The notes beneath the pieces were generated by a model, which worked only from the letters and a program-made list of their open reading frames with translations, made no database searches and was not told the origin of the DNA. 64,000 bases of DNA from positions 113,053 to 177,052 of the forward strand of contig JAMPXW010000002.1 of NCBI GenBank assembly GCA_023701005.1, read 5' to 3'. The position numbers and the translations under genes were made by a program. This DNA is from Burkholderiales bacterium (lineage in GTDB: Bacteria > Patescibacteriota > Minisyncoccia > Phycocordibacterales > UBA9973). Of this stretch, positions 6,218-58,592 are shown one piece after another. Position 1 is the first letter of the stretch. Each line of letters opens with the position of its first letter.

Positions 6218-7516
6218 TTACATAGGTAAATTTGTAGGAGGAGAAGCTTCTTTTGATTCTATACGTTCCAAAGTAGGAACTTTCAATATCTGACCTGGGA
6301 AATGCCACAAAGTAGCTAGCTCTTCTGTGTTTAGTACATTTATGTGATGATGAAAAAAGTTTGGGAATATTAAAGGTGAAAGAGGCCAGGGTAAACTTAT
6401 CTTATGACGCATTGGTGGATGAAAAAATTCTCTCTCTTGATATTCCAAAAGCATTCTGTTTGCCAAACGTGCTATCTTTTTACTAGATAAGGGAAAAAAT
6501 TCAGCAATCTTATTTGTAGAAAATGCATCTGCTTGAGTAGAATTAATACGCTCAAGTTGATTCAAAAAAGGAGCTGCATATTGTCTAAATATAAGACGGA
6601 TATTTCTTCTATTACTCATATTAAACAGTTCCCTTTTTGCAACATAACAAACCCTGATGCCTGTATCAAAACCAACTTTCATAAATTTACGTCCAGCACC
6701 TTTAACCATTTCACTCATAAAATCAGGCGCACGAATTTCTTTTGCTTTTGTACCATCTGGTCTATCATGCAAACGAGTGAATTCTGCTAAAGATTTCCTA
6801 ATTTGTAATTCTGATTCTTTTACCCAATCATGTGTCTTTGTAAATGGTCCTGCGTGCTCTGGGTATTCTTTCTTTGAAGGTCTCACTACTATCTGCATCC
6901 ACATTTGTTCTCCTTTGCCTATAGAACCAAAAAGCTCTACGACAGGCGTGATAGGATCTACTTTATATTCTTCTTTGGGATCTTTATCTAAACCAAAATC
7001 AATATATGTCTTAATAGGAAAAGCGTCCGGTTTTGCTAACTTAAATTCACAACCCCAAAGATTCCATTTACTATCAAGTGTTATCTCGTCGACAGCTAAA
7101 GTATAATCTTCAACTACTTTCACTTGAGCCTGAGGAAATTGAGCATACATCTGAGTCTCAATAAGACTCTTGACACGCGTTGGTGTACGTATATAAAAAT
7201 GCACTTGTCCATCGATAGAAGCTATTTCCAAAGAAAACCAAAACCACACAGCACCTTGCCAATATGTCTCAAGTCCACTTTTATTACTCATATGATAAAG
7301 CGCATTAGTTATAAAAAGCTCCATTGCTTTTGGAGATCTCACAACATCTCTTGGAGGAACTATTTCAAGTAACACCCAATCAATACCAGAAATAAAATCT
7401 GCTCTCACGTAATGAAGCCAGAAAGCATGAGCCATATATGCCAAAACAGCTGTACCAAAAAAAGGTAAGATTGCTAATAAGATTTTATAAATCCATAAGA
7501 TTATCAAATCTATCAT
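6218..7516 (-). CDS. hypothetical membrane-anchored protein
   Basis: 432 aa ORF, N-terminal TM helices, no recognisable motif. Confidence 0.4.
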   Translation of the reverse strand: MIDLIILWIYKILLAILPFFGTAVLAYMAHAFWLHYVRADFISGIDWVLLEIVPPRDVVRSPKAMELFITNALYHMSNKSGLETYWQGAVWFWFSLEIASIDGQVHFYIRTPTRVKSLIETQMYAQFPQAQVKVVEDYTLAVDEITLDSKWNLWGCEFKLAKPDAFPIKTYIDFGLDKDPKEEYKVDPITPVVELFGSIGKGEQMWMQIVVRPSKKEYPEHAGPFTKTHDWVKESELQIRKSLAEFTRLHDRPDGTKAKEIRAPDFMSEMVKGAGRKFMKVGFDTGIRVCYVAKRELFNMSNRRNIRLIFRQYAAPFLNQLERINSTQADAFSTNKIAEFFPLSSKKIARLANRMLLEYQEREFFHPPMRHKISLPWPLSPLIFPNFFHHHINVLNTEELATLWHFPGQILKVPTLERIESKEASPPTNLPM

Positions 7517-7593: not shown

Positions 7594-8622
7594 TTAAGCT
7601 AGAGTATAAAGTCCGTTTTTATTCTTTTTGAAAAATTTAGTATTTACAAGATTTACTAAAATTGTATTTTTCTTGAAGTATCTTTCTTTCATAACTTTCT
7701 CAACTACATCTTCTTTAGAAAGCGGCCCTTCTCTCTTTAAAATATCTTTTATTACGTCACGAGCTATGCCTGTCTTGTATCCCCATTCTGCTAGTGCATA
7801 CAAACCTCTACCTACTAAAACAAAACGAGAATCTTTAATGAGCTCATTGTGACAAGTAGCATAATGTGTCTTTCTGCCAAAAGTCTTTGATATAGCATCT
7901 GCTACTTCTTTGAAATGCATAGGTGAACCATGTTTTCTCATAACAAGAAAAGCGTAATCTTTAACTCCGCGAGTACGAACATTTGGTGAACTTGCCTTAC
8001 CCCATTCTCCTAATGGATTTTTAGAGATAGTTTTTGACATAGAAAGCCATCTTCGAGCTATCTCTTCATTGCGATAATGTTCTGCAACATCTTTCATGTG
8101 ATCAAAGAATTTCTTGATCATTTCTGTTTCCAAAACTAAATCTTCATCATTTAAAGTAGAAAAAAGTTTCTTTAAGGAATCGTGTACCTTATCAGCTATC
8201 TCATCATCAACACTCCAACGAACCTTAAAATGATCGTCTTCTCTGTGTTTTCTGAAATAATCTCCAAGTTCTAAATAAAAATGAATATGATTTTGAGTAT
8301 TTTTATCCTTAGAAACATGACTCAAAAGATCACTTTCTGAAACTATTGAACCCAAAGAGTGTATCAATTGCTTAAGTTCTTCAAAAATAGCTTGCTCCTC
8401 TTTGTAGACTGAAGATTTCTTGATCAATGCCAAAGCACTGTCTTCTATCTGACGAACCCTCTCTCTTGTTATGTTGTATTTTTTACCTATTTCTTCTAAG
8501 GTCTTTCTTTTTGCATCCGGAGTCAAACCAAAACGGTTCATGATCACATCACGTGTGCGATCTTGTAAGTGAGAAGTTATTTTTTTAGTGACTTGTTTTG
8601 GTTTAAAAGATATTGTTGACAT
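7594..8622 (-). CDS. DNA-binding protein with sigma-70 region-4-like HTH (N-term) and HARE-HTH domain (C-term)
   Basis: 'RDVIMNRFGLTPDAKRKTLEEIGKKYNITRERVRQIEDSAL' sigma r4-like; 'SPMHFKEVADAIS...RFVLVGRGLYALAEWGY' HARE-HTH signature. Confidence 0.5.
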   Translation of the reverse strand: MSTISFKPKQVTKKITSHLQDRTRDVIMNRFGLTPDAKRKTLEEIGKKYNITRERVRQIEDSALALIKKSSVYKEEQAIFEELKQLIHSLGSIVSESDLLSHVSKDKNTQNHIHFYLELGDYFRKHREDDHFKVRWSVDDEIADKVHDSLKKLFSTLNDEDLVLETEMIKKFFDHMKDVAEHYRNEEIARRWLSMSKTISKNPLGEWGKASSPNVRTRGVKDYAFLVMRKHGSPMHFKEVADAISKTFGRKTHYATCHNELIKDSRFVLVGRGLYALAEWGYKTGIARDVIKDILKREGPLSKEDVVEKVMKERYFKKNTILVNLVNTKFFKKNKNGLYTLA

Positions 8623-20899: not shown

Positions 20900-20912
20900 T
20901 ATTTATAAATAA

Positions 20913-20984
20913 GGCCTGGTAGCCAAGTGGTAAGGCAGAGATCTGCAAAATCTCTATGCGGCGGTTCAATTCCGCCCCAGGCCT
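20913..20984 (+). tRNA. tRNA-Cys (GCA)
   Basis: manual fold: acceptor GGCCTGG/CCAGGCC, anticodon loop CUGCAAA, T-loop TTCAATT. Confidence 0.8.
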
Positions 20985-21053
20985 CCCTAAAACTTTTGTT
21001 TTAGAATTGTAATTTAAAAATAAATATATATAATAAATTGGTTAGTTTAAAAT

Positions 21054-21135
21054 GCCCGGATGGCGGAACTGGTATACGCGCACGACTTAAAATCGTGTCT
21101 CGCAAGGGATGTGGGTTCGATTCCCACTCCGGGCA
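21054..21135 (+). tRNA. tRNA-Leu (TAA), class II
   Basis: acceptor GCCCGGA/TCCGGGC, anticodon loop CUUAAAA, long variable arm, T-loop TTCGATT. Confidence 0.8.
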
Positions 21136-21169
21136 CATTGCAAAATTAATTTTGCAAATAAAATAACTT

Positions 21170-21189
21170 ATTTTCCGCCCTTAGCTGTT
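21170..21189 (+). repeat. 19-bp copy of the tRNA-Lys upstream/5' end (TTATTTTCCGCCCTTAGCT) not followed by a tRNA body
   Basis: identical to 21242-21260; downstream sequence does not fold as tRNA. Confidence 0.55.
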
Positions 21190-21248
21190 TTGGTAGGTAT
21201 ACAGCTAAATAAATGTTCTTTTGTTATAATGTTTCAATTATTTATTTT

Positions 21249-21321
21249 CCGCCCTTAGCTCAGCTGGTAGAGCAGATCCCTCTTAAGGATAAGGTCGAAG
21301 GTTCGATCCCTTCAGGGCGGA
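21249..21321 (+). tRNA. tRNA-Lys (CTT)
   Basis: acceptor CCGCCCT/AGGGCGG, D-arm GCTCAGCTGGTAGAGC, anticodon loop CUCUUAA, T-loop TTCGATC. Confidence 0.8.
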
Positions 21322-21367
21322 CACTTTAAAAATATTTTTAAAGTATTCGTTTTTAGTTTTTATATAT

Positions 21368-21451
21368 GCCGAGGTGGCGAAATTGGCAGACGCACTTGCC
21401 TTAGGAGCAAGCGAGAGTAATCTCATGGGAGTTCAAGTCTCCCCCTCGGCA
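21368..21451 (+). tRNA. tRNA-Leu (TAG), class II
   Basis: acceptor GCCGAGG/CCTCGGC, anticodon loop CUUAGGA, long variable arm, T-loop TTCAAGT. Confidence 0.8.
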
Positions 21452-21458
21452 CAAATTA

Positions 21459-21504: not shown

Positions 21505-21533
21505 TTGACTTTTGTATCTGAATATGCTATACT
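21505..21533 (+). promoter_or_regulatory. sigma-70-like promoter TTGACT-N17-TATACT; predicted TSS at or within a few nt of the ATG (leaderless mRNA)
   Basis: TTGACT 21505-21510, 17-nt spacer, TATACT 21528-21533; ATG at 21540. Confidence 0.55.
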
Positions 21534-21539
21534 ATTAGT

Positions 21540-22172
21540 ATGAGTAAAATAAATAACAATTTAATATCAACTTTTGGGATTTTAACCTTTATTTTTGGAC
21601 TATTTATAACTTCCCCTGTATATGCTTCTGTTGGAAGCACTATGTATACTGGTGTAACATATTTCCCTCAAAATGATGTTGTTTACCAAAACAATACAAA
21701 CAACCAAGGACAAGTATCAATAGTCGGTTGTGAAGGAAGAAATACTGGTTTTAGTACTGTCTCCGGGCAATCTTGTGTTGGTAATTATATAAATAATAAA
21801 AATAACACTTCCCCATCAAATACAAATACTAGAACTATTACCTCACGTACTTCAAATAATGAGAATGTTTCAAACACAACTACAAACAAAACAGTTGCAA
21901 AATTAACAGACGTAAGTAAAGATTTCTTTGGAACAAATACCAATACAGAAAGTACAAACAACACTACGAATGAAAATTCTGAAAATACTTTAACTAAAGA
22001 AAATACTTTCAGTGGTGTCACAGCAAATGCATTAGTTGGGTCAAATAGTTTTATGCCTACTGGTCTTTTGCAATGGATAATATTGTTGATAATAATAGTA
22101 GCAATAATGTTCTTGTGGAGATATGTACATGCTGAAGAAAAATACTTAGCAGAACCATTAAAACACGCTTAA
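21540..22172 (+). CDS. secreted low-complexity (Asn/Thr-rich) protein with C-terminal TM anchor
   Basis: signal peptide 'ILTFIFGLFITSPVYAS', N/T-rich middle, C-terminal 'LLQWIILLIIIVAIMFLW'. Confidence 0.5.
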   Translation: MSKINNNLISTFGILTFIFGLFITSPVYASVGSTMYTGVTYFPQNDVVYQNNTNNQGQVSIVGCEGRNTGFSTVSGQSCVGNYINNKNNTSPSNTNTRTITSRTSNNENVSNTTTNKTVAKLTDVSKDFFGTNTNTESTNNTTNENSENTLTKENTFSGVTANALVGSNSFMPTGLLQWIILLIIIVAIMFLWRYVHAEEKYLAEPLKHA

Positions 22173-22213: not shown

Positions 22214-22242
22214 TTGACTTTTTTGTTTATGTGTGATATACT
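22214..22242 (+). promoter_or_regulatory. second TTGACT-N17-TATACT promoter
   Basis: TTGACT 22214-22219, 17-nt spacer, TATACT 22237-22242. Confidence 0.55.
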
Positions 22243-22277: not shown

Positions 22278-22344
22278 TTAGTTTGTTTGTTCGAGAGGCT
22301 AACAACTTCCCTATCCCCTTCGGCCCTTCAAACAAACAAACTAA
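22278..22344 (+). promoter_or_regulatory. structured 5' leader: perfect 14-bp long-range stem (TTAGTTTGTTTGTT / AACAAACAAACTAA) enclosing 39 nt, ending 8 nt before an AAGGAG RBS
   Basis: inverted repeat 22278-22291 / 22331-22344; RBS 22353-22359; ATG 22367. Confidence 0.5.
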
Positions 22345-22366
22345 AAACATAATAAGGAGAAACAAA

Positions 22367-23443
22367 ATGGAAAATTACGTATTTATTATTCCAATATTAA
22401 TATTAATATTGGGAGCTTTTATTCTTCAAGGATTAATAAAGATTTCAGCAAGTCCGCCTTGTGTAGGATTAGGTACAAGATTTGGCAAAAGAAATCAAAA
22501 AATATACGAGGAAGGTTGGAATTTTTTTCCTTTATATCCATATTTAAAAGGATTTATTCTTATAAAAATGGAAAGAATAAATATTGAGGTATCCTGCGAC
22601 AAAGTAAGGACATTAGACAAAGCAGAATCAAAAATATCAATAGGCTTAACTATTCGTCCAGTCAAAGAACTATTAATACCATATATTGATAGCGGGCAAG
22701 AAAAAAAAGTAACAGAAATATTAATTAAAATTATTGAAGAAAAAATCCGTGAATGGTGTATGAACAAAGGAGAAGGACCTAATAATTGGGAAGAATTAAA
22801 TATGTCCAAACTCGAAGGAGTAAGTGTATTGATAAAAAAAATTGCTGGAAATAAATCAGAATATCTTACACAAATAACTGGAATCGCTCAAAAAGTACCT
22901 ACCTGGATATGGTTACGCTATTTTTCTAACCCACAACCCAGAGAAGAAAATTTACTGGAAAATGAAAAATATTGGGCAGAAAATGAGTGGAATAATGTAA
23001 ACACCGTTCTTAATGAAATTAGAATGAAAGAAGGAGAAGAAGGTATTAATCTATTAATTACACAAGTAGCTAAAAGAAGAGAAGATTTAGAAAAAATTCG
23101 TAGTGGACAAGGAAAGTTGATAATAAAAGATTTGGGCATTATCATTGAAAGGTTAAACATTGGTGAAATAAATGTTCTTGGTGAAGTTGGTAAAAAAGCT
23201 GAAAATGAAGCAAAAGAAAAACAAGAAAAAGCAGCAGAAATTTTAGAACTAGAACACATTTCAAAAAGAATCTTGGCCTTAATGAAAGATCCTCCTGACG
23301 GACCTGGGCTCACAAGAGAACAAGCTCTTGAACAAATTCAACTTTCCCAAGGAAAAACAACCAAAACAATTGATGCAAAGTCAATTAATTTAGACCCTAC
23401 CACATCTGCCCTAATAGGTAAGATTCTAAACAAAATTATTTAG
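22367..23443 (+). CDS. membrane protein, possibly SPFH/band-7-like, with C-terminal coiled coil
   Basis: start chosen at Met29 of track ORF (strong RBS); N-terminal TM, long Lys/Glu coiled-coil tail; weak SPFH resemblance. Confidence 0.4.
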   Translation: MENYVFIIPILILILGAFILQGLIKISASPPCVGLGTRFGKRNQKIYEEGWNFFPLYPYLKGFILIKMERINIEVSCDKVRTLDKAESKISIGLTIRPVKELLIPYIDSGQEKKVTEILIKIIEEKIREWCMNKGEGPNNWEELNMSKLEGVSVLIKKIAGNKSEYLTQITGIAQKVPTWIWLRYFSNPQPREENLLENEKYWAENEWNNVNTVLNEIRMKEGEEGINLLITQVAKRREDLEKIRSGQGKLIIKDLGIIIERLNIGEINVLGEVGKKAENEAKEKQEKAAEILELEHISKRILALMKDPPDGPGLTREQALEQIQLSQGKTTKTIDAKSINLDPTTSALIGKILNKII

Positions 23444-23940: not shown

Positions 23941-23978
23941 AAAGAGCGTTTCCTTTTTAGGAAGCGCTCTTTTTTTAT
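23941..23978. terminator. bidirectional rho-independent terminator
   Basis: 13-bp stem AAAGAGCGTTTCC/GGAAGCGCTCTTT followed by TTTTTTATTT. Confidence 0.65.
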
Positions 23979-23998: not shown

Positions 23999-24322
23999 TT
24001 AGTTATTAGGCAATTGTATTTCTACTCTTCCTTCTTCGGGATCAATTCCTTCGATATTAAAAGTATTCATTATCATATCTAATATCGTAAATACTCCCAT
24101 CATTATAACAATACCGAGTATCCCCCATATTATATGATCTCTACCTTTTATCTTAGCCTCCTCATTGTCTTGATTAGAAATAAACTGAAATACTCCATAC
24201 AAGAAATAAGCAAAAGCTGCGGCAAATAGTAATGCAATAATCGGATTTATGATCATTCTGTTAACATTCAAGACAAAAGAATCCACACTTGCATAAGCTA
24301 TATTTGTAAAAAGAAAATCCAT
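23999..24322 (-). CDS. VirB2/TrbC-like two-TM pilin-like protein, paralog 1
   Basis: TM1-'SNQDNEEAKIKGRDH'-TM2 hairpin shared with the four neighbours. Confidence 0.5.
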   Translation of the reverse strand: MDFLFTNIAYASVDSFVLNVNRMIINPIIALLFAAAFAYFLYGVFQFISNQDNEEAKIKGRDHIIWGILGIVIMMGVFTILDMIMNTFNIEGIDPEEGRVEIQLPNN

Positions 24323-24333
24323 ATTTTTATCTA

Positions 24334-24711
24334 CTAGAAATTAGGAGCTAAAACAGGGATATCAGTACTTGCACCTGTTAGACCGAAGGTATTCTTTACG
24401 ATACCTACAAGCCCCCACATAGCAACGATAACAACCAAACCGATGATACCATAGATCATTCTGTCTCGTCCTTTTGTCTTTGCTTCTTCATCATCAGAAA
24501 TGACGAAAGTAACAACTCCATAAACAAAGAATACTACTCCTAATACGATAAGTATTGGGATAATAATATCTAAGATATTTCCAACCTTACAAATGATACT
24601 TTGAATAGTACCTGGTTGAACACTATTACAACCTGATGACATTTGAGCAGATGCTACAAATGGAGCAAAACTTAAAGCAACACTAGACAAACCAATTAAT
24701 TTTTTCTTCAT
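24334..24711 (-). CDS. VirB2/TrbC-like pilin-like protein with Sec signal peptide, paralog 2
   Basis: signal 'SFAPFVASAQ', Cys pair, TM1-'SDDEEAKTKGRDRM'-TM2. Confidence 0.5.
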   Translation of the reverse strand: MKKKLIGLSSVALSFAPFVASAQMSSGCNSVQPGTIQSIICKVGNILDIIIPILIVLGVVFFVYGVVTFVISDDEEAKTKGRDRMIYGIIGLVVIVAMWGLVGIVKNTFGLTGASTDIPVLAPNF

Positions 24712-24806
24712 ATGATTTAAACTTAATAATAATTAAAAAACGACCTTATAATATACTAATAATGTACCCTTATTATATCACAAAAAGAACAATAAATATG
24801 CAAATC

Positions 24807-25106
24807 CTACTGTTTCAACTGTGGAATAAATTTACTATCAATATTGAAAGTATTGCCTACCACTCTAACGAGTGACCACATTGTAACCATCACAGTCAAT
24901 GCAATAATACCCCAAATCATAAAATCTCTACCTTTTTCCTTCTTTGCTTCTTCATCACTATTTATGACGTATTGAACTACTCCCCATATAAACGAAGCTA
25001 TGGCCAAAGCAAAGATTAAAGGGATTATTGAACCAAATATAATGCATCTAAAATAAACTAATAAATCTTGAAATTTTGGATCCGCAATCAAATTACAGGC
25101 TAACAT
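24807..25106 (-). CDS. VirB2/TrbC-like pilin-like protein, paralog 3
   Basis: TM1-'NSDEEAKKEKGRDFM'-TM2. Confidence 0.5.
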   Translation of the reverse strand: MLACNLIADPKFQDLLVYFRCIIFGSIIPLIFALAIASFIWGVVQYVINSDEEAKKEKGRDFMIWGIIALTVMVTMWSLVRVVGNTFNIDSKFIPQLKQ

Positions 25107-25125
25107 ATTTGTTTAAATAAATTAT

Positions 25126-25530
25126 TTATAATGCCTTTACTGTATCTGTTATAAGCTGAGCAAGACCCCACGACCCTAAGAGTATCGCAGCACCGATGAG
25201 TGTATATATAAGCGAACGCTTGGCTTCATCTAATTTTTCAGAATTACCTTGAGCAGCCACAAAAAGAAAACCAGAATAAATAATGGCTAAGACAATGATG
25301 GGCATACCTAATTTAACTATCCCTACTAAAACTTTTTCAATCAATTGTGTAAGGGTCTTTGATTCTATTGGATTAACAAGTTTTAAAGATTCAGAAGATG
25401 GTGGCTGAGTGCCAATATCTGAAGTTGGAGGTTTTGTTCCTGTATCTGTTTGCCCAAAAGAAATTAATGGCAAAAATAACATAAACATTATCAATACTAT
25501 ATTCAATAAATTTTTCTTTAAATAATTCAT
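25126..25530 (-). CDS. VirB2/TrbC-like pilin-like protein with signal peptide, paralog 4
   Basis: signal 'FLPLISFGQ'; 'LIEKVLVGIVKLGMPIIVLAIIYSGFLFV...KRSLIYTLIGAAILLGSWGLAQLI' matches VirB2 two-helix topology. Confidence 0.5.
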   Translation of the reverse strand: MNYLKKNLLNIVLIMFMLFLPLISFGQTDTGTKPPTSDIGTQPPSSESLKLVNPIESKTLTQLIEKVLVGIVKLGMPIIVLAIIYSGFLFVAAQGNSEKLDEAKRSLIYTLIGAAILLGSWGLAQLITDTVKAL

Positions 25531-25625
25531 CCCATTAAAAATTTTAATTATTTATAATTCTTCTTTTAGCTTTCCCGTAGTTAAATTTCTAACGGGACAA
25601 GTATCTATATTATACCTCTATAATA

Positions 25626-27218
25626 TTAAAATCCAAACATATTTATACCTGCATTTGTATCAAACCCAACTATGTTTAATACCGTCTTTACTATCAAAAA
25701 TGCCCCCAGGGAAACAACTAATCCAATCAACACGTTTATAAATATATTTTTGGCTTTTGACTTTTTCTCTGTATCTCCACCTGATGTAACTAATTCAAAT
25801 CCTGCGTAGGCAAACAAAATTGCTGAAACAGGTAAAATAAATCCAAGGAAAAGATAATCCATAACTTTCTTTATCAAAGCAAAAATATCATTAAAACCAC
25901 AAGGGTTACTGATCATGCCACTCACATCTTCATAGCTTCCATTAATTTTACTATTTTTTAAATCACCTTCTTTGTTTCTAAAAGTATTTTCTGCATACCT
26001 CTCTGTTCCACAAGGTACTAATCCACCACTTACTTTATTACTATTATCTACATAAGCTGGGGCTTCTGTGGGCTTTACTTGTGTAGTGAATGCATGTGTA
26101 GCTGTGACATCAAAAAGTTCGGATGCATTTATCAATCTATATTGATATGGCGTACCAGAATTAAGATTGGTTAATTTAAAACTAGTTTTACCAAAACTAT
26201 CAATAACTAAAAAATCACTTTGAGTGGTTAATTCTCCTTCACCATATTCCAATTTTAATTTCAAACTTTGTCTATTTTCATTATATATATATGCATTAAA
26301 AACAGCTGAATTTTCTGTAATATCATCCATGGAAACACTCGCTAATATCGTCGAGCCTGTCGTACTTTTAGTAACAAAAAAACTTTGATTTGATGGTTTT
26401 AATCTTGAAGTTGTATCAAACAATCTAAAATAATATTTCTTTTCTGGTTTTAAATCTTTTAAAGTAGCAACCAAATCCCCCTTCGCATCAATCTTTAAAA
26501 TATCAGAAGAGAAATCAAAATTCTTTTCTCCATATTCTAATTTCAATTTCAAATCTTGGGGTTTTGTATTAGAAATCCTTGTCTTTATTTCTGCACTATT
26601 GTCTGTGACATTTATTAAAAAGTAACTATTTATAATCTGTGTAGGGTTATATTTTGAGTAAGAAGGCCCGACTCCATCTATGGGTCTACCATTAGCACCA
26701 ATGCTAATACCATAGGTATAAGGATAAGTATAACCAATAGGAATGTATCCTGTGCGAATGGTCATAACATCTCCATAAAACTTTTCTTCCGGTCTTTCGT
26801 TAAAATATCCAACTGCTCTAAAATAATAAGTAGAAAATAGATTCAACTCTGGACTTATATGGAAAACACCACTTACTTCTGGATTTAATTCTCTTTCTAT
26901 CTCTATTGTTTTCTGTATATCTTTCTCTGATTTAAGAAATAATTTTAATAAATCAGAAGAACTTAAATTTATATTGGTACTAGTATTTGTATCAGCTTTT
27001 TCAAATTCAAAATAAGTAGTAATATCTTCTTCATTTACATTACCACTATAATATCCACTAAACACAAAAGACTGTGCACTCAAAATAGAATAACCCGTAG
27101 TATATATTTTTAAATTATCTGTATTCTGAGCTGAAACTTTTGTATTAGAAATAAAAAATAATAAACCTCCTAAGACTAGGACTAAACTTAAAATTAATTT
27201 AATATTTATTTTCTTCAT
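25626..27218 (-). CDS. secreted protein with three FN3-like repeats fused to a C-terminal VirB2-like two-TM pilin module
   Basis: signal peptide; repeats '...LKLKLEYGE...YYFRLF'; C-term 'NPCGFNDIFALIKKV...FILPVSAILFAYAGFELVTSGGDTEKKSKAK...LIGLVVSLGAFLIV'. Confidence 0.5.
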   Translation of the reverse strand: MKKINIKLILSLVLVLGGLLFFISNTKVSAQNTDNLKIYTTGYSILSAQSFVFSGYYSGNVNEEDITTYFEFEKADTNTSTNINLSSSDLLKLFLKSEKDIQKTIEIERELNPEVSGVFHISPELNLFSTYYFRAVGYFNERPEEKFYGDVMTIRTGYIPIGYTYPYTYGISIGANGRPIDGVGPSYSKYNPTQIINSYFLINVTDNSAEIKTRISNTKPQDLKLKLEYGEKNFDFSSDILKIDAKGDLVATLKDLKPEKKYYFRLFDTTSRLKPSNQSFFVTKSTTGSTILASVSMDDITENSAVFNAYIYNENRQSLKLKLEYGEGELTTQSDFLVIDSFGKTSFKLTNLNSGTPYQYRLINASELFDVTATHAFTTQVKPTEAPAYVDNSNKVSGGLVPCGTERYAENTFRNKEGDLKNSKINGSYEDVSGMISNPCGFNDIFALIKKVMDYLFLGFILPVSAILFAYAGFELVTSGGDTEKKSKAKNIFINVLIGLVVSLGAFLIVKTVLNIVGFDTNAGINMFGF

Positions 27219-27224
27219 GAAAAT

Positions 27225-28520
27225 TTATTTTACTAATAAAAGCCCCAACTTTGCGCTAGCGTCATTGATAGCTTCTTCAACACTCATACTATTTGATAAT
27301 ACTTTTTCTATCATACCTTTAAATATGGCATCAGTATCTTCTACTTTTGGGTCAGGCCAACTTTTCGCAAAAAAAGCAGAAGAATAGAAAACTGGGAAAT
27401 ACGCATCCGTCGGTATTATCTTCAGTAAGTCACGCCTTACAGGCACGACACCTGTAGCCGAAGCTAACTTGGAAGCAAAATCTCCACTAGACATCAAATT
27501 TGAAGCTGCGAATGCAGTATTTAAATTTTTTGTCATTGAAGATATAGCAACCCCCAACACATGTCCATTTGTTAATTTAAAATTACTATTTTTAATTTGT
27601 GGTAAAGGAGCTACTAAGAAATTCTGATTTGGATTTTTATTTACCAAAGATTGCACTTCACTAGCGTATCCAAAATAAAATGCTAAATCTTCCTTACTAA
27701 ATGCATCACGAGAATTAGAAAAAGATTTATTCCAAGAATATGATTCTTTTAATGGATCAGCAAAATCTGTATAATATTTCAAAACTGCTGACAAATTATT
27801 TTTTGTATTATCTTCTTTTAATAAAGAAACATATATACCATTCTTTTCACCAACGATAGAGTTGCCTGCTTGCATAAATAATGCACTCAATAAATCCTTG
27901 GAATGAAGAACATTTGAAAATTGCCCCATAGCTACAGCGCTCTTTGTTATCAACCCTTTTTCATCTTTTTTAGTCAAAATAGGTGCCAAGGTTCTAAATT
28001 CATCCCAATATAAAGGAGGATAAGCAATACTGTGTGCATCTAACGTACTTCTGTTGTAATACATAACGAGTGGATCTACTGTAAGAGGAAAAGCTAACAT
28101 TCCTTTCGAATTTATAAACGCTTCTCCTGCTCCTACGAAGGTATTTTTAAATGTATTTAATGGAAAACTTTCGTAAGGTATCGTATATATTTTATTAGTG
28201 TATTTAAATACTAAATCGTCTGTTATAAAAAACATATCTGGACCTTTGCCTTCTGCCAATGCTTCTAGTAAATCATTGTCAAAAGTATCTGCTGATTTTT
28301 GTACATATTTAACAGAGAAAGAAGTATTTACTCTATTGAAATCTTCTATTAAAGAAGCCATAACTTGAGATTTGATAGTACCCCACAAAACTACAGTGCC
28401 ACTCGCAGTATTCGTGCCACTATTGTTGCCTAAAGGTATCGCACCAGAAAAAACAAAAACCCCCAACACAGCAGCGGCTATAAATACTACTAACATTATA
28501 ATTTGGAAATTACCTTTCAT
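27225..28520 (-). CDS. membrane-anchored extracellular solute-binding-protein-like (family 1) protein, no cognate permease nearby
   Basis: N-terminal anchor, 'GTVVLWGT...FNRVNTSFSVKYV...LLEALAEGKGPDMFF' SBP_bac_1-like. Confidence 0.45.
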   Translation of the reverse strand: MKGNFQIIMLVVFIAAAVLGVFVFSGAIPLGNNSGTNTASGTVVLWGTIKSQVMASLIEDFNRVNTSFSVKYVQKSADTFDNDLLEALAEGKGPDMFFITDDLVFKYTNKIYTIPYESFPLNTFKNTFVGAGEAFINSKGMLAFPLTVDPLVMYYNRSTLDAHSIAYPPLYWDEFRTLAPILTKKDEKGLITKSAVAMGQFSNVLHSKDLLSALFMQAGNSIVGEKNGIYVSLLKEDNTKNNLSAVLKYYTDFADPLKESYSWNKSFSNSRDAFSKEDLAFYFGYASEVQSLVNKNPNQNFLVAPLPQIKNSNFKLTNGHVLGVAISSMTKNLNTAFAASNLMSSGDFASKLASATGVVPVRRDLLKIIPTDAYFPVFYSSAFFAKSWPDPKVEDTDAIFKGMIEKVLSNSMSVEEAINDASAKLGLLLVK

Positions 28521-28524
28521 TATA

Positions 28525-29142
28525 TTAATTCTTAATAAATATTATACCATAATGGTGTTCCCCTGCATCTATCTCTCTATCTATTTTAAAACCTTCTTTC
28601 AAAAACATTTCTTTCGCTTTATTTTTATCAATAATTTTACCAAAACCTACACCAAAAACACTCGTATTGTCAGACCAATCAATAAGTAAAACTTTGCCAT
28701 TCTCTTTTAATATCCTTTTTGTCTCTTTAACAAATTTTTCTTTATCTTCTACCTGAAATAAAACATTTGAAGCTATCACAGCATCGACTGTCTCGTCTTT
28801 TATTTTTGTTCCTCCTATTTTTTCTATGTCACCCAAAAAACACTCAACATTATTTAAATGAGCTTCTTTTGTCTTATTTCTAATAGTCGTCAAAAAATCT
28901 TTCTGTATTTCTACAGCATAGACCTTACCCCTAGAGACAATATGAGCAAGAGGAATAGTGTAAAATCCTGAACCAGCACCCAAATCTGCAACAATCATAT
29001 TTTCTCTCAACCCGAATGCTTTTAAATTTTTTACCGGATCAGTAAACATATTATAAATTATAACACTAAAACGATGTAAGAGATGCAATACTATCACCAG
29101 AACGTAAACGCATGATGGTGACTCCTTGAGTTTGCCTACCAA
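28525..29142 (-). CDS. class I SAM-dependent methyltransferase (true start probably Met31 at 29052, avoiding overlap with gyrA)
   Basis: '[16 protein letters not shown]' motif I; track start overlaps gyrA 3' end by 77 nt. Confidence 0.6.
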
Positions 29143-38895: not shown

Positions 38896-40569
38896 TTAAA
38901 TAACTTCTTTCTGATAACACTTTTCACAATACATAATCGGAGCCACTTCCTCAGTCAAATTTGTATAACATACTTTATTACAATTTGAACAATTGCGATT
39001 AAAAAACTTAAATGAGCCCCTACGAACTATACGGCCTTTATGCCTACAATAAAAGCACCTTCTTGGTATTGGCAAAATCATTTTACGATAAAAAGTAAGC
39101 TCTTGCATAGTTATCTTATAATTGCGATCACATTCTATACACTTAAACACTTCATTCACAACCGAATCTTTTATATCTTTGATATGATCTGGAATTTCTT
39201 CCGGGCTCATTGTTTCTTTGCCTGTTGTCATCTGTATATCTTCTTCCCATCTAAAACCTTGTGCCAAGGCTTCTTCTTTGGTTAAAGGCATATTATCTTG
39301 CCCAACTGTTTCATTATAAGCAAAAGGTGATATTTCTGGAGACATTATTAATCCATACATATCATCTTTTATTAATTCATCTATTATTTTATTTTTTAAT
39401 CTTTCATATTCATCCTTTTCATATTCCTTATTTAAAATAGCATATTGTCCATCTTTTAATGCATCACAACCAATACAATCCTTACATCTTCTTAAATCGA
39501 AACTATTTAAAATATTACTACAATTCTCAGCCCAATATGACCCTATAATATTATTGGAATGTCCTGTAGCAACAACTTCCAGCAAGCATTCTGATTTTGT
39601 CCCAAAACCAATTGTACCTATAGAATCTTTAATTAATTTTGAAGAAAAAATATAACGACAATTTTCTGACATAGCTACTTCAAATGAATTATGAATATTC
39701 TTACACTCAGAAAGATAATCCCCCGTAGAATCCACCGTCTTTAAATTGTTATTCTCTTTTCGTGGAAGTGTTTTACAAAATTCTATAAATTTTTTCTTGG
39801 CTTCTTCCATCTTTTTATAACTTCCCTTTATTTCTTTTATTTTCTTTTGATATTCTTCCGCGCTTAATTGTTCATTAAAATAACAATTACTTTTATTACG
39901 CAAATTTACACAGCCAAAACAATTTGTAAGTCCACTGCCGTTTAGAATAAACATGGAATCTAAGCAATTACTTATATTTTGACCCCATAATACTCCTGAT
40001 GATTCTTGGGCATTTATACATTCATAACAACGCTCAAATTTTACTCCAAAATAGACATCTGAAGAATCAAGACCATATCTCATTCCTCTCGAATATAATA
40101 ATTCTTCAGCTGGACCTCCATTAAAAACAAGATAACAATTCTTGCAAGCACTAATCATATTTGTATATTCACTATTTATACTAACTCCTCCTCCAGAAGA
40201 TGTCCCTAAATTAATTTTGGGGACTTTGATTAAAAGCTCTTTAAATTGGTCTAAAAATGAACGTGATTCATCGTACTCCATGGCATAATCTTTTGCATTC
40301 CATTTATCAGAATAAAAACAATCATAACAATAAATCTTATAAGGAGATTTAGGATTATACATAGATATAACAGATTTATTACACATATGACATTTTCTTC
40401 CTGTATATAATGTAGTTTCATTTCTCCACATCGCACGCATCTTAAAACGACAATCTGGGCAAAAATTTGGAGGAGGAACCTTCATTTTTTCATAAAAAGA
40501 AAAATCATCTTGTTCTAAAACAAAATCATTTTTACATTTATTACATTTTTTTATTTCAGATTCTTTCAT
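38896..40569 (-). CDS. 557-aa cysteine-rich protein: homologous N- and C-terminal zinc-ribbon modules flanking a CxxC/NC-repeat core; embedded between murE and murD
   Basis: N-term 'CNKCKNDF...FYEKMKVPPPNFCPDCRFKMRAMWRNE...CHMCNK...YCYDCFY' and C-term 'CIECDRNY...FYRKMILPIPRRCFYCRHKGRIVRRGS...CSNCNK...YCEKCYQ'; 13-nt and 3-nt gaps to neighbours. Confidence 0.6.
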   Translation of the reverse strand: MKESEIKKCNKCKNDFVLEQDDFSFYEKMKVPPPNFCPDCRFKMRAMWRNETTLYTGRKCHMCNKSVISMYNPKSPYKIYCYDCFYSDKWNAKDYAMEYDESRSFLDQFKELLIKVPKINLGTSSGGGVSINSEYTNMISACKNCYLVFNGGPAEELLYSRGMRYGLDSSDVYFGVKFERCYECINAQESSGVLWGQNISNCLDSMFILNGSGLTNCFGCVNLRNKSNCYFNEQLSAEEYQKKIKEIKGSYKKMEEAKKKFIEFCKTLPRKENNNLKTVDSTGDYLSECKNIHNSFEVAMSENCRYIFSSKLIKDSIGTIGFGTKSECLLEVVATGHSNNIIGSYWAENCSNILNSFDLRRCKDCIGCDALKDGQYAILNKEYEKDEYERLKNKIIDELIKDDMYGLIMSPEISPFAYNETVGQDNMPLTKEEALAQGFRWEEDIQMTTGKETMSPEEIPDHIKDIKDSVVNEVFKCIECDRNYKITMQELTFYRKMILPIPRRCFYCRHKGRIVRRGSFKFFNRNCSNCNKVCYTNLTEEVAPIMYCEKCYQKEVI

Positions 40570-49826: not shown

Positions 49827-51365
<1,539 letters not shown>

Positions 51366-51749
51366 CTAAAAGTTTAAATTACAAAGTAATTTACCCTTCA
51401 TAGTTCCGTTAGGAACGTAGTAGGGTTATTAATTCTGCTTCGCATAAAGCTACACAGAATAGATTTTACTTCATAAAATCTAGAACGAAACAAAACAAAA
51501 AACAGCATTTACTTAAGTATTTTTTGTCATTCGTTAGAGTTTAATATTTGCTCTAAAAATTATTCTACTTACTCAAAAAACATATTGAGACTTGCTACCC
51601 AATCTGATCTTATAGATTGGGGTTCTCAAGTTATTAACTTGTCAAAGATTGAAACAAAAACGCCCTATCAAATTGGTAGAGACGCTCAGGGGAAAGTATA
51701 TATCAAGCCGACTTCTATGTCAAGCACATAATTAACCTAAAAATACCTA

Positions 51750-51893: not shown

Positions 51894-53108
51894 CTACTCA
51901 CAAGTCACTTCGTGGATCAATATATTATTATTCTCATTGGATTCTTCTATTTCTGAACTACCCCAGCCACAAGCATTATCTGCACAAACTTTAAGTGTAA
52001 ATTTATCTCCCTTCGAACAAATTGGAATCCACCAATCATTGTCAGTAGGAGGAGAACTAAATACCTGATATCCAAACAAAGTTGGACCAACGGCAGAACC
52101 GACACCCAAACTTCCAAAATACCAAGAACCAGCTTCATACTGATTGTTGACTGTCATTCTCACTGTACCTGCTCTTCCCGCAGAAACTTCTCCAATATTT
52201 TTTTCTATAAAATTAAAAACTGGTTTTGATCCGCTCTTCACCGTCGTTGCCCATGTGCCAACTTTCTCAATCACAAAGTCTGGTTTTTTACTACAATCTA
52301 CAAAAACATCTCCGGAGATTTCATTATTATTTTCACTAACTTCAGTTAAACCATTACCACCATCTACTTTAAAAACATAATGATTATTACCACAAGCTGG
52401 CCCATCCCAAATTTCAAAATTACTTGGAAGACTAATATTAGTATTAAGATAAGAACTTAAATCATAAGTACCATTTGAACTTGTTCTTAAAATTGAAAAT
52501 ATTTTTTTCTTAACTTCATAAGAAGAATTATAAAAAACATAATCATATTCCTTTTTACCTAAGTTAAGAATTTTTGCATTTAATGTTATAAATTTGCCTT
52601 GAGAAACTTCAGTGGGCCAAATACCAACTTTCTGAACACTCAAATCAAAATCATTAACACTGAGTGTATTTGGTATCGTTGGTTGAGATATATTATTTAT
52701 ATCTTCTCCATAAGAAGATTTTACTACCACATTAAAAGATGCACTTGCTTCCCCGCTATTACAATCTGAAACACCTAGTTTAACATTATATGTACCAGCC
52801 TTTGACCATCCATGACTTATTCTCAAATATGTATTTGCTTCTTTAGCAGGACAAACCTTGGAAAAAGAAGAACCATCTCCCCAATCCATAGACCAAGCCA
52901 AATTGTCACCATCAGGATCTCTAGCCTTGAAATTAAAAATCACTGGATCATCTGTATAAGCTACACATGATTGCCCTTTTATTAATTTATAACCTGAGAC
53001 AGAAGAACAATCAGGTAGAGAATTTTGCGCATCTAAAAAATTAATTTTAAAAACAAAAAAACTCAACACAAAAGCTACAACAAAAAACAATAATGTGTAT
53101 TTCTTCAT
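51894..53108 (-). CDS. secreted protein with PKD and CARDB-like domains
   Basis: signal peptide; 'NLAWSMDWGDGSS...GTYNVKLGVSD' PKD; two 'xVxKVGxWxTxVxxG' CARDB-like segments. Confidence 0.6.
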   Translation of the reverse strand: MKKYTLLFFVVAFVLSFFVFKINFLDAQNSLPDCSSVSGYKLIKGQSCVAYTDDPVIFNFKARDPDGDNLAWSMDWGDGSSFSKVCPAKEANTYLRISHGWSKAGTYNVKLGVSDCNSGEASASFNVVVKSSYGEDINNISQPTIPNTLSVNDFDLSVQKVGIWPTEVSQGKFITLNAKILNLGKKEYDYVFYNSSYEVKKKIFSILRTSSNGTYDLSSYLNTNISLPSNFEIWDGPACGNNHYVFKVDGGNGLTEVSENNNEISGDVFVDCSKKPDFVIEKVGTWATTVKSGSKPVFNFIEKNIGEVSAGRAGTVRMTVNNQYEAGSWYFGSLGVGSAVGPTLFGYQVFSSPPTDNDWWIPICSKGDKFTLKVCADNACGWGSSEIEESNENNNILIHEVTCE

Positions 53109-56100: not shown

Positions 56101-56595
56101 CAAATTTCCACCAGTTTTATCAGAAGCTTTTATTGTCCATTTTCCATTTTGTCCTATATTTAATGTCTGAGGACCTGTCGCACTCAAAATTGAAATTTCA
56201 TTTGTAATAGGGTCTTTATCTGGATCAACAACTATCTCCCCTCCACAAGAAGCACTTTTTATTTTTGCTTTCGTCGCTGGACCCACATATCCTGTAGGAC
56301 TAATATTATTATCTTTTTGAAAATCTTTTACGGCTTTAAGAGTTAAAATTCCAAAATATCCAGTCGGTTCTGAATTCAAATATCCCTTAACTTGCAAAAA
56401 ATCTTGAAGAAGAGAAACTTCCCCATTTGTATTTGCATCTCGTGCTCTATATCTCAAACCAGAACTTTGCAAAGAGATACAATCTGATGCTGTAGGATTA
56501 GGATCGACATCCCCTACTTGTGCAAAAGAGAAACTTGGGATAACAAGAACAGTTAGAAACAAAACTGAAAGAAAACCCAATATGTATTTTTTCAT
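53131..56595 (-). CDS. 1154-aa cell-surface protein: PG-binding domains at both ends, multiple PKD repeats, FN3, dockerin-like repeat
   Basis: 'LQDFLQVKGYLNSEPTGYFGILTLKAVKDFQ' and 'AVKAFQAKNGLVVDGVFGPLS' (PG_binding_1); '...WGD...AGTY...VTNS.GKS' x3 (PKD); 'DADRNGSVNSADVSYL' (dockerin). Confidence 0.65.
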   Translation of the reverse strand: MKKYILGFLSVLFLTVLVIPSFSFAQVGDVDPNPTASDCISLQSSGLRYRARDANTNGEVSLLQDFLQVKGYLNSEPTGYFGILTLKAVKDFQKDNNISPTGYVGPATKAKIKSASCGGEIVVDPDKDPITNEISILSATGPQTLNIGQNGKWTIKASDKTGGNLTYSVNWGDVTLTCPSGASCAMAYTPEQTGQTATFIHSYSKAGTYNPTFTVTNSSGKSTQTSLSVKVEETTTTPVVLSVSGPQTLNVNQTGTWTVNASDSSVGNLTYYVSWGDDGDTDASEAWRSSQQSATFTHYYLKAGTYGPKFFVTNSNGKTGSASVSVKVGVSSISVLSPKVGDIFSAGQTITIKWTPGAPGLTYINFYKNDSTYSTSARVQNNPDTSGSMQYTFPVNMPAGQYTINAFYETNLNGSVSSSDLFKSNGTFTIISTNTTTPTITSFYYLPQTTPGEVVYGETVTIHWASANATSCTASDGTYSGLKATSGSMPTASITSTKKYTLQCVNSSGVKSDIATLTLVPKKQPSVACLDTDGNNEYIKGTISGLGTDGIMKNQTDSVRPANFYGDGYSYVIEWICTDPTTTNGISYATNTNIKCEYGAGDGVCLQKTSTTAPHISDVSGPTSINANTAGTWKINAYSTTAVSYTVEWGDGQRQSFMPSSTFTHTYSTAGTYTASFSATNASGQSDSKNLSITVIGNTIPSLPVPVVSYFYSDKTTVDYGSTANMYWSSINATSCTASDGTYEGIKTASGNMLTGSLTKTTTFSLKCTGAGGTSGTSYVTINVLPQTTPVVPLPVISFFTSPDSVSYNGTATINWVVKNATSCTAGGDWSGPKSATSGSEVAGYYLTSSKNYTLTCIGAGGGASASAKITVGTQVIPVELPLTPASFRITSASTSSINFAWTDTSNNETGFKIYKNNSLLATLGPNVTTYSDLAGFQCNTTYSYNIVAYNSAGESRVSSSVTPGYTTCAVSEVVFGNVSGDGIVDCKDTTMIMQYLVGTTTFTDDQKNRADADRNGSVNSADVSYLLTKYNLSCSTANASSKPSLMASALDAFDDVKNTKEKQETNTIKNEVKTQELSCGEFNIILKNGKTDPQVKCLQRLLNRNGFKVEGIEEGKETNFFGKATEKAVKAFQAKNGLVVDGVFGPLSRAFLK

Positions 56596-57897: not shown

Positions 57898-57936
57898 AAA
57901 AAAGAAAAATCCGCAAGGATTTTTCTTTGCGGATTT
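57898..57936 (-). terminator. rho-independent terminator AAATCCGCAA-(9)-TTGCGGATTT
   Basis: 10-bp perfect stem overlapping stop of 57935-58441 gene, U-run on minus. Confidence 0.6.
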
Positions 57937-58441: not shown

Positions 58442-58592
58442 TTTGAGGTTTAGTTTTTGATTGTTTAGAACTTATTATCTATATAAAGTATAGCATATAT
58501 AATATTAAAAGTCAAGTAAAACCAGCAAAGAGCTTTAAAAAATAAAGACATATTAATAAAGAAGAGGGTTTTAGAGAAGGTTGTATTTTCTT

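Follow-up and report, generated by a model that had tools for sequence, protein, structure and literature searches.

Five tandem genes for small VirB2/TrbC-like proteins, one of them fused to a large ectodomain, raise the question of what such an array does where no T4SS machinery is encoded beside it. The original prediction regarded the locus as an orphan and as "not a described system". We analyzed the surrounding window, i.e., the whole stretch of 64,000 nucleotides, together with the corresponding loci of 80 fetched GTDB genomes (Nomurabacteria/Paceibacteria). The locus is best read as a chromosomal pilin operon of a Nomurabacteria-type bacterium (Paceibacteria, Patescibacteria), located away from its T4SS. 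We consider it probable that this remote operon feeds a Patescibacteria T4SS and includes an adhesin-bearing pilin, with the machinery placed by the genomes of relatives.

The six predicted open reading frames, five pilins and a solute-binding protein (SBP), were confirmed, all on the minus strand. The pilin genes occupy 23999-27218 and are, in order, position 1 (530 aa, 25626..27218), position 2 (134 aa, 25126..25530), position 3 (99 aa, 24807..25106), position 4 (125 aa, 24334..24711) and position 5 (107 aa, 23999..24322). Upstream lie the family-1-like SBP (431 aa, 27225..28520) and a class I SAM-dependent methyltransferase (174 aa, 28525..29049), which matches generic methyltransferases only, also in Pfam.

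Searches with Pfam PF18895 (T4SS_pilin; cut-off, 26.6 bits) matched all five modules. The score was highest for position 4 (46.5 bits), followed by position 2 (41.8), position 3 (31.7) and position 1 (27.9); position 5 scored 22.5 bits, under the cut-off, and its best cross-genome match was a position-5 protein in 60/60 cases. Among the small pilins of the window and its relatives, 106/107 matched PF18895 and 28/107 also matched PF04956 (TrbC/VirB2; cut-off, 27.9 bits), with a best E of 8.5e-11. NCBI annotation already calls the proteins "pilin", including MCM2339260.1, which is identical to pilin 1. Topology prediction gave the proposed membrane hairpin in 5/5 proteins, with two hydrophobic helices and a short charged loop between them, and AF2 modeled helix-loop-helix structures for positions 1 and 2. 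N-terminal signal-like segments were found in the 530-, 134- and 125-aa pilins and are missing from the 99- and 107-aa pilins, in agreement with the prediction of a Sec signal in at least two small pilins. A loop core had been described for all four small pilins; its 'DEEAK.KGRD' motif matches the 99-, 125- and 107-aa proteins, whereas the loops of the 134- and 530-aa pilins differ. A profile built from the pilins matched no solved VirB2/TraA sequence, and fold searches with the position-2 model returned generic helical hairpins only. Judged from their sequences, the five hairpin proteins are VirB2-like pilins, as had been proposed, and belong to the PF18895 family.

The fusion of an FN3 ectodomain to a pilin hairpin was borne out for pilin 1, in which a signal peptide and three FN3-like domains are followed by a linker with cysteines and, at the C-terminus, by a VirB2-like hairpin. 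Its N-terminal hydrophobic segment (aa 6-24, a helix over the same residues in the AF2 model) belongs to a putative signal peptide of aa 1-30 (27129..27218), with the cleavage site, between ...KVSA and Q, judged by eye. The AF2 model (pLDDT 81) contains beta domains D1 at aa 37-170, D2 at 197-282 and D3 at 293-378 (26085..27110), and Foldseek aligned ~355-375 columns to three-FN3 fragments with E 1e-12 to 1e-9. D2 and D3 share 35% identity (E 1e-13). Many positions of D1 hardly vary across homologues, and the middle region is length-variable. Small beta elements were modeled in the linker (aa 400-441, 25896..26021), where L400, V401, C403 and C440 are each shared by 90% or more of the 64 homologues. 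The hairpin (aa 442-516, 25671..25895) is composed of helices 442-477 and 483-516 (pLDDT ~90), with TM-like segments at 456-474 and 492-510 and the PF18895 match at 459-512. Position-1 ectodomains are modular, reach 350-740 aa in part of the lineage, and vary between species (fn3, DUF5018, InlB-B-repeat-like, TSP1). To our knowledge, an ectodomain fused directly to the pilin hairpin has not been described for canonical VirB2-family pilins.

Position 2 carries a signal peptide, a variable T/P/S-rich linker and a hairpin that stops directly after TM2 (AF2 helices, 60-92 and 97-133). Its own PF04956 score is 26.3 bits, i.e., under the cut-off; most of its listed orthologues match both PF18895 and PF04956, and one carries the annotation 'TrbC/VirB2 family protein'. 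Of the five paralogs, position 2 resembles VirB2/TrbC most closely, and it is the candidate major subunit. Position 3 lacks a signal peptide and contains two N-terminal cysteines and TM segments at 22-40 and 62-80. In many relatives a double pilin of 190-350 aa takes its place, the long forms carrying two PF18895 stretches, and the position reaches at least 190 aa in 31/59 arrays. Position 4 has a signal peptide, a Cys pair and a hairpin (TM segments, 49-67 and 86-104), with orthologue identity of up to 80%, and position 5 is without a signal peptide.

Comparative analysis revealed that the methyltransferase-SBP-pilin cassette is syntenic in 80/80 fetched genomes and occupies the same place in the core genome throughout, between gyrA and infB. 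Fifty-nine arrays have five pilins and 13 have six, while the remainder are interrupted by contig ends. The best cross-genome match of a pilin occupied the same position in 297/300 cases, and the five positions are kept as orthogroups across ~60 to at least 72 species. Based on these position-specific orthogroups, the five pilins would be non-redundant subunits and not variation cassettes.

The SBP matches PF01547 (SBP_bac_1, E 3.4e-20) and PF13416 (E 5.4e-16), has relatives in 306 GTDB species genomes, and is anchored by a single N-terminal TM helix (aa 7-25). Like the CUT1 SBPs (MalE, UgpB, SmoF; PF01547), it gives SBP_bac_1/SBP_bac_8 matches, although similarity to solved CUT1 sugar SBPs is weak (best E 3e-8). 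It differs from them in its TM anchor in place of a lipobox, in its constant linkage to a pilin array, and in the absence of a permease or ATPase gene at the locus, which the original prediction had correctly noted. Its participation in the pilin system is plausible.

No VirB4/VirD4-like gene was found in the 64-kb window, as had been stated for the flanks of the array; the large ORFs of the window are all housekeeping genes, except for four of 391-557 aa that have no significant family match. Nor did T4SS genes lie within 10 kb of the cassette in any of ~85 loci of the lineage. At the level of the lineage, however, the claim of a pilin family "without a secretion ATPase" did not hold, as the literature lists VirB4 for 17/19 named Nomurabacteria genomes that bear the SBP or cassette; the two carrier MAGs listed without VirB4 may be incomplete. 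According to the accessible part of PMC12102498, VirB4 and TrsD occur together, far from the cassette, in GCA_000989515.1, GCA_000991415.1 and GCA_001000035.1. The same part lists PrgI and T4CP homologues for the first two of these genomes and at least PrgI and TrsD for GCA_000999465.1. In Nomurabacteria GW2011_GWE1_32_28 (locus L011) it places VirB2-VirB4-TrsD-PrgI at genes 352-356, plus T4CP homologues, with GCA_000991415.1 arranged similarly, and in GCA_001000035.1 TrsD-VirB4-VirB2 at genes 642-645. In relatives for which this source gives gene numbers, the array is ~300 genes from virB4. Within the accessible portion of its Table S3, some cassette pilins of other genomes are entered as 'VirB2, not near VirB4', and no cassette pilin of GCA_000989515.1 appears. 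For the lineage, the term "orphan" is therefore true only locally.

Multi-paralog VirB2-like pilin arrays are already known from the Patescibacteria (PMC12102498, PMC10633639, PMC12857230), which contradicts the view that the system is undescribed. A survey counted 441 arrays of 2-11 VirB2-like pilins in 383 Patescibacteria assemblies, with a pilin gene near virB4 in only 1135/1948 assemblies (PMC12102498), and an array of this kind is, according to published work, essential in Southlakia epibionticum. This six-gene array (SEML1_0014-0019, strain ML1) adjoins VirB4-like, PrgI and VirB6-like genes and contains no SBP. Our locus shares with such arrays PF18895, in some also PF04956, the tandem arrangement of sequence-divergent two-TM pilins, a monoderm epibiotic-type host phylum and the lack of a relaxase context. 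In contrast to arrays inside a T4SS cluster, it lies far from virB4 in those relatives for which gene numbers exist, follows the methyltransferase and SBP genes in an unbroken block, and has five conserved orthogroup positions and, in part of the lineage, a position-1 ectodomain. The new details are these position-specific orthogroups, the extensions confined to positions 1 and 3, the VirB2-like character of position 2 and the uninterrupted SBP-pilin junction.

An unlikely alternative is that the five hairpin proteins, with ten TM helices, form a T4SS-independent membrane hetero-oligomer rather than a pilus, acting as an SBP-dependent uptake pore or receptor with the co-transcribed SBP, or as a surface anchor for the FN3 ectodomain and the SBP. 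It would account for a junction between SBP and pilin 1 (6 nt here; median, 5 nt across 78 loci) that exceeds 300 nt in 0/78 loci, although insertions interrupt gyrA-methyltransferase in 25/73 loci and also occur downstream of pilin 5. It also fits the missing permease and ATPase, a cassette that never adjoins T4SS genes in this lineage, and the two carriers listed without VirB4. Moreover, relatives own a separate VirB2-like gene adjoining virB4, and therefore the machine may not need the remote array. However, the methyltransferase, the first gene of the never-interrupted block, is joined to the SBP equally tightly (median, 7 nt; >300 nt in 0/79 loci), so that in compact genomes tight spacing alone does not show function. 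A second SBP of the window (family 5, 58964-60715) likewise has no adjoining permease gene, the S. epibionticum array includes no SBP, no transporter family matches the hairpins, and the characterized context of the hairpin family is the T4SS.

Far less credible is an array for antigenic or host-range variation, in which the paralogs would be interchangeable, diversifying major pilins, as proposed for the likewise tandem virB2-like genes of Bartonella and Anaplasma. The idea has been raised for Patescibacteria arrays (PMC12102498), paralogs within a genome are just 24-48% identical, and position-1 ectodomains differ between species. Nevertheless, each position is an orthogroup with 53-61% identity among orthologues, a divergence resembling that of the neighboring SBP (median pairwise identity, 63%), and the positions differ in signal peptide, C-terminal tail and extensions. 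The paralogs are therefore not interchangeable variants, and for positions 2-5 this explanation is largely refuted. It is hardly conceivable that the genes are mobile-element cargo or that the proteins belong to an unrelated family of small membrane proteins (holins, Flp/Tad or type IV pilins). The sub-threshold membrane-family matches were weak (e.g., Phage_holin_4_2, E 0.39), no holin or Flp match was significant, and the proteins have two TMs, whereas type IV/Flp pilins have one N-terminal helix and a class III leader. Cargo is contradicted by the fixed gyrA-infB position in 80 species, by a base composition like that of the surroundings, and by the absence of relatives from 2.9 million viral contigs. 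Both ideas were refuted by these profile searches and the synteny.

Under the preferred reading of a remote pilin operon, the subunits would insert into the membrane so that both termini face outward and the charged loop inward, and VirB4/TrsD/PrgI-type machinery encoded elsewhere would extract and polymerize them. Position 2, with its Sec signal, variable T/P-rich exposed N-terminus and short C-terminal end, would be the major subunit, and positions 3-5 conserved minor or accessory subunits. Pilin 1, with a conserved distal FN3-like domain and, here, two FN3 spacers, would put an adhesin-like domain on the filament or at its end for host-cell contact. The genes of the SBP-like protein and of the small methyltransferase are invariant neighbors that would be co-transcribed. 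We know of no pilus observed in any Patescibacterium for this pilin family. In VirB5/CagL tip adhesins and type IV minor pilins, a low-copy subunit shows a binding domain on a filament of small major pilins. Their likeness to pilin 1 is a functional analogy: the proteins are related neither in sequence nor in fold, and here the domain is covalently fused to a VirB2-type hairpin. Diderm VirB2/TrbC/TraA (PF04956) share the signal peptide, two hydrophobic helices and short charged loop, and position 2 and its orthologues match their family. Our locus differs in that its host is monoderm, it encodes five distinct paralogs, it lacks a VirB5-type tip protein, and its pilins show no detectable sequence match to solved VirB2/TraA chains. 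All five modules also match, over the hairpin, the Mbov_0395-family pilin-like protein of Mycoplasma ICEs (NF045849; E 1e-4 to 7e-9), whose hosts are likewise wall-less or monoderm; none of the scores (22-35 bits) reaches the curated cut-off of 40, and our locus lacks an ICE context.

The consensus promoters and tRNA cluster noted near the locus exist, but they lie on the opposite strand. The TTGACT-N17-TATACT sites at 21505 and 22214, both on the plus strand, stand in front of two convergent genes, at 21540-22172 and 22283-23443, rather than the pilin genes, and the tRNA cluster (20912-21452) is ~2.5 kb from the pilin genes. On the minus strand, the extended -10-like TGGTATAAT (28541..28549), read from the sequence, precedes the SBP start by 21-29 nt and is contained in the methyltransferase gene, at its 3' end; it is weak promoter evidence, because the motif occurs upstream of the SBP in only 10-11/59 loci. 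A hairpin with a 14-bp stem and T-runs on both sides (23941..23972), found by consensus scan alone, sits between a convergent plus-strand gene (end, 23919) and the end of pilin 5 at 23999, and is likely a bidirectional terminator that closes the operon. A possible internal promoter, TATAAT at 25609..25614 (minus strand), falls within the 95 nt that separate pilin 2 from pilin 1, and this motif is present within 80 nt upstream of pilin 2 in 35/59 loci compared with a 6% background. The gap before pilin 4 (95 nt here; median, 111 nt across loci) contains a further possible promoter, the extended -10-like TGATATAAT (24772..24780, minus strand), and TATAAT is found upstream of pilin 4 in 20/59 loci.

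The pilin locus is a run of six co-oriented minus-strand genes at 23999–28520, exactly the gene set of the original prediction. It begins with a 431-aa solute-binding protein (SBP; 27225–28520) and a 530-aa protein (25626–27218), followed by proteins of 134, 99, 125 and 107 aa; the last five are referred to as pilins 1 to 5. The intergenic gaps from the 431-aa gene to the 107-aa gene are 6, 95, 19, 95 and 11 nt, and a strong hairpin at 23941–23972 probably closes the operon. The G+C content of the locus is low, the same as that of the flanking DNA, and no tandem DNA repeats of note were found within it. The neighborhood is housekeeping in nature, with gyrA and a methyltransferase gene upstream and infB and clpB farther out. 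Convergent with the operon is a gene for a 210-aa protein (21540–22172, plus strand) that combines a signal peptide with a low-complexity region rich in N and T and is anchored by a C-terminal transmembrane (TM) segment; most relatives carry it downstream of the array on the opposite strand.

The exact motif TTGACT-N17-TATACT occurs three times in the 64 kb, at 21505–21533 (+), 22214–22242 (+) and 58487–58515 (−), compared with 0.03 occurrences expected; none of 100 shuffles reached three. All three sites start with TTGACTTTT and have TGn ahead of TATACT. Of the genes that follow them (21540–22172, 22283–23443 and 57935–58441), two encode small proteins that are exported or lie in the membrane and one encodes an SPFH-domain protein; the motif is a possible consensus of strong promoters specific to the lineage. 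The two consensus promoters that had been noted beside the pilin genes are real as sequences, but they lie on the strand opposite to the pilin genes.

Hydropathy analysis indicated that all five pilin-position proteins have a pair of hydrophobic helices at the C-terminus, with a short charged loop between them, and AlphaFold2 (AF2) placed these helices at residues 442–477 and 483–516 of pilin 1 and at 60–92 and 97–133 of pilin 2. Pilins 1, 2 and 4 have N-termini resembling signal peptides, while pilins 3 and 5 have no signal-like N-terminus, just a short N-terminal tail. The loop consensus originally proposed, DEEAK.KGRD, describes three of the five proteins; the loops of the 134- and 530-aa proteins differ. 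When compared with the T4SS_pilin family PF18895 (gathering score 26.6 bits), four modules scored above the cut-off (46.5, 41.8, 31.7 and 27.9 bits) and the 107-aa protein scored below it (22.5 bits); among small pilins of the window and its relatives, 106 of 107 matched at E ≤ 1e-3. For the TrbC/VirB2 family PF04956 (gathering score 27.9 bits), pilin 2 reached 26.3 bits (E 8.5e-6), slightly under the cut-off, and 28 of the same 107 proteins matched at E ≤ 1e-3, with a best E of 8.5e-11. PF04956 is also found in the precomputed annotation of most position-2 orthologues among the matches listed, one of which bears the name 'TrbC/VirB2 family protein'. NCBIfam gave solely sub-threshold matches, to NF045849, a Mycoplasma ICE pilin-like family. 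A profile of the 107 cassette pilins detected no similarity to solved VirB2, TraA or TrbC pilins among PDB sequences. The NCBI entries identical to the 530-aa and 134-aa proteins are named 'MAG: pilin [Burkholderiales bacterium]' and lie on a 267,744-bp contig. Type IV and Flp/Tad pilins, whose hallmark is a class III leader followed by a single N-terminal hydrophobic helix, were ruled out by the two TM helices per module and by the lack of any such profile match. As for a phage holin, the sole match was Phage_holin_4_2 at E 0.39, the locus belongs to the core genome, and no relatives were found in viral contigs.

The AF2 model of pilin 1 (64 homologues, pLDDT 81) consists, in order, of a signal helix, three beta-sandwich domains (residues 37–170, 197–282 and 293–378), a short linker that contains Cys and a 75-residue helical hairpin. 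Foldseek aligned it with three-FN3 fragments of fibronectin, LAR, Tie2 and others over approximately 355–375 columns (E 1e-12 to 1e-9), and nearly all of the top 50 matches were FN3-containing ectodomains, so that the fusion of three FN3 repeats to a pilin hairpin had been read correctly from the sequence. Pfam matches to fn3 and Pur_ac_phosph_N remained under their cut-offs. Domains 2 and 3 share 35% identity. In the homologue alignment, domain 1 and the C-terminal linker and hairpin are strongly conserved and the middle part varies in length; in other position-1 members, TSP1, DUF5018 or InlB-B-repeat-like modules replace FN3.

The SBP matched PF01547 (SBP_bac_1) at 73.7 bits and PF13416 (SBP_bac_8) at 59.6 bits, and it has a single N-terminal TM anchor. 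Its similarity to solved CUT1 sugar-binding proteins is weak (best E 3e-8), and it is strongly conserved, with 62–74% identity across more than 100 homologues among the matches listed. No cognate permease or ATPase was found in the 64-kb window or among the genes annotated on either side in relatives. The gene 4 nt upstream of the SBP (28525–29049, minus strand) encodes a generic class I SAM-dependent methyltransferase, for which the pilins, for example at their Lys/Arg-rich loops, would be a conceivable substrate. A second solute-binding protein, of the SBP_bac_5 family (E 8e-72), is encoded at 58964–60715 (+) and likewise lacks an adjoining permease; it is followed by RNase J and a polytopic membrane protein, the latter a putative MFS-type transporter. 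In this genome, the pilin locus is thus not the only place with a permease-less SBP.

A profile scan with the SBP alignment, using one genome per GTDB species, identified relatives in 306 genomes, and the best 80 of these are all Nomurabacteria/Paceibacteria. The gene order gyrA, methyltransferase, SBP, pilins was found in every locus that extends far enough, including those of the most divergent homologues of the big pilin that were looked up (P0062 and P0064), which share this context. Fifty-nine loci encode five pilins and 13 encode six. The pilins form five position-specific orthogroups, and in 297 of 300 cases the best cross-genome BLAST hit occupies an identical place in the array; orthologues are 53–61% identical (63% for the SBP), and paralogs within a genome 24–48%. 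Only position 1 (24 of the 59 loci) and position 3 (31 loci) carry extensions of at least 190 aa. Each of the three long position-3 proteins scanned (259–350 aa; L041:12156–12959, L024:12009–12785 and L063:12161–13210, all from loci of relatives) contains two tandem PF18895 modules, constituting a four-TM 'double pilin', in contrast to the single 99-aa module at position 3 of the window. Of 59 loci, 35 have a TATAAT in the 80 nt preceding pilin 2 and 20 have one in the 80 nt preceding pilin 4, with a background of 6%; pilin 1 almost never has the motif ahead of it. All fetched homologues being collinear, the SBP–pilin link is separable from general synteny by breakpoint analysis alone. Of 73 loci, 25 have genes inserted between gyrA and the methyltransferase gene, some directly upstream of the latter, and the stretch that follows pilin 5 is variable. 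There were zero interruptions at the methyltransferase–SBP junction (median 7 nt; never separated in 79 loci) or at the SBP–pilin 1 junction (median 5 nt).

VirB4-, VirD4- and VirB6-like genes are absent from the 64-kb window and from the 10 kb around the cassette in relatives, and the pilin locus is an orphan locally. The evidence from relatives' genomes suggests that it is not an orphan at the genome level: of 19 named genomes with the SBP or the cassette, 17 are listed as having VirB4 (PMC12102498, Table S1). In the portion of Table S3 of the same study available to us, the cassette carrier Nomurabacteria GW2011_GWE1_32_28 has VirB2-VirB4-TrsD-PrgI at genes 352–356 together with T4CP homologues, GCA_000991415.1 has a similar cluster, GCA_001000035.1 has TrsD-VirB4-VirB2, and PrgI-TrsD is visible for GCA_000999465.1; VirB4 and TrsD occur together, away from the cassette, in the three carriers whose rows are complete there. 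Pilin arrays have also been published: VirB2-like pilins were found in 1948 VirB4-containing assemblies, near virB4 in just 1135, and 441 arrays contain 2–11 pilin genes each with an average identity of 25% (PMC12102498). S. epibionticum has six PF18895 pilins (SEML1_0014–0019) inside its T4SS cluster, which are essential, and a 2025 review treats the Patescibacteria pilus as hypothetical, with a role as an uptake conduit being speculated. The idea of an undescribed system without machinery consequently fails for this lineage, although the observation on which it was based is confirmed and its interpretation is supported in part. The locus belongs to the known Patescibacteria VirB2-like pilin arrays; it differs from them in its site away from T4SS genes, its fixed five-subunit make-up, its ectodomain-bearing pilin and its invariant SBP neighbor. 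We found no mention of the SBP partner, the ectodomain-bearing pilin or the positional orthogroups in the literature searched. Table S3 lists no cassette pilin for GCA_000989515.1, so the survey missed the cassette in that genome (PMC12102498); the case shows that conserved remote pilin loci escape surveys anchored on the virB4 neighborhood.

The 432-aa product of the gene at 6218–7516 (minus strand), which has a pair of TM helices at its N-terminus, was considered as a possible TrsD/T4CP-like component, and no T4SS link was found. It has no Pfam, NCBIfam or PDB match. An exhaustive search yielded 1705 cluster representatives at E ≤ 1e-3, the best 150 of which are mostly stand-alone proteins of approximately 400–460 aa with no ATPase fusions among them; the protein belongs to a large uncharacterised family.

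We consider it probable that the locus is a remote pilin operon serving a Patescibacteria-type T4SS, with five non-redundant subunits. Position 2 would be the candidate major pilin of the filament, as it resembles VirB2 most closely, is often preceded by a promoter-like element of its own, and combines a variable, T/P-rich exposed N-terminus with the lack of a C-terminal tail. Position 1 would be a low-copy subunit presenting a modular adhesin-like ectodomain. Filament formation, these subunit roles and any role of the SBP or the methyltransferase are what we infer. A membrane complex that works with the SBP independently of a T4SS would agree with the unbroken SBP–pilin junction and with the separate virB4-adjacent pilin that relatives possess; we regard it as unlikely, however, since the methyltransferase junction is just as tight and the context of the hairpin family is the T4SS. 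That the array serves antigenic or host-range variation is very improbable, being contradicted by the position-specific orthogroups, and an origin as a holin, Flp pilin or mobile element is scarcely credible, since the profile searches, the conserved gene order and the lack of relatives in viral contigs all speak against it.

A more speculative extension, which we regard as unlikely, is that the uninterrupted SBP–pilin block is a functional unit, in which a heteromeric VirB2-type filament of five dedicated subunits contacts the host via the pilin 1 ectodomain and the co-expressed, membrane-anchored SBP binds a small molecule that comes from the host and reaches the SBP at, or by way of, the filament. 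If true, this unit would be a pilus-coupled nutrient-acquisition device and would provide a concrete molecular entry point to the role of 'uptake conduit' that has been speculated for the Patescibacteria T4SS.

A large part of bacterial diversity belongs to the Patescibacteria, whose cells live attached to those of a host. To our knowledge, no role has been established for their T4SS/pilin structure. The T4SS and VirB2-like pilins are essential in the sole genetically tractable Patescibacteria species. The lineage described here offers a clean natural dissection, with five fixed, non-interchangeable pilins, a swappable adhesin-like ectodomain and an invariant SBP partner. The position-1 ectodomain is a candidate host-specificity determinant, and the features of the cassette yield testable predictions on subunit stoichiometry, tip location and ligand binding.

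The contig is publicly labelled 'Burkholderiales bacterium'. As every relative is from Nomurabacteria/Paceibacteria, this label is evidently a binning error; since all homologues and the synteny of MCM2339260.1 (25626–27218) place the contig in that group, the MAG holding it is probably mis-binned or chimeric. The window contains a complete 16S rRNA gene (49827–51370, minus strand), and because no other rRNA match was found in the 64 kb, the rRNA genes appear to be unlinked. Two large secreted proteins with surface-type domains, one of 404 aa with PKD and CARDB (51894–53108, minus strand) and one of 1154 aa with PKD, peptidoglycan-binding, dockerin and FN3 domains (53131–56595, minus strand), are candidates for further surface or host-contact proteins. 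Between murE-like and murD-like genes, a 557-aa cysteine-rich protein (38896–40569, minus strand) has many CxxC pairs and no family match. Finally, a 342-aa protein (7594–8622, minus strand) has an unusual architecture, combining an N-terminal sigma-70 region-4-like HTH (E 9e-15 to RpoD models) with a weak RNA polymerase delta-like stretch at residues 222–286.
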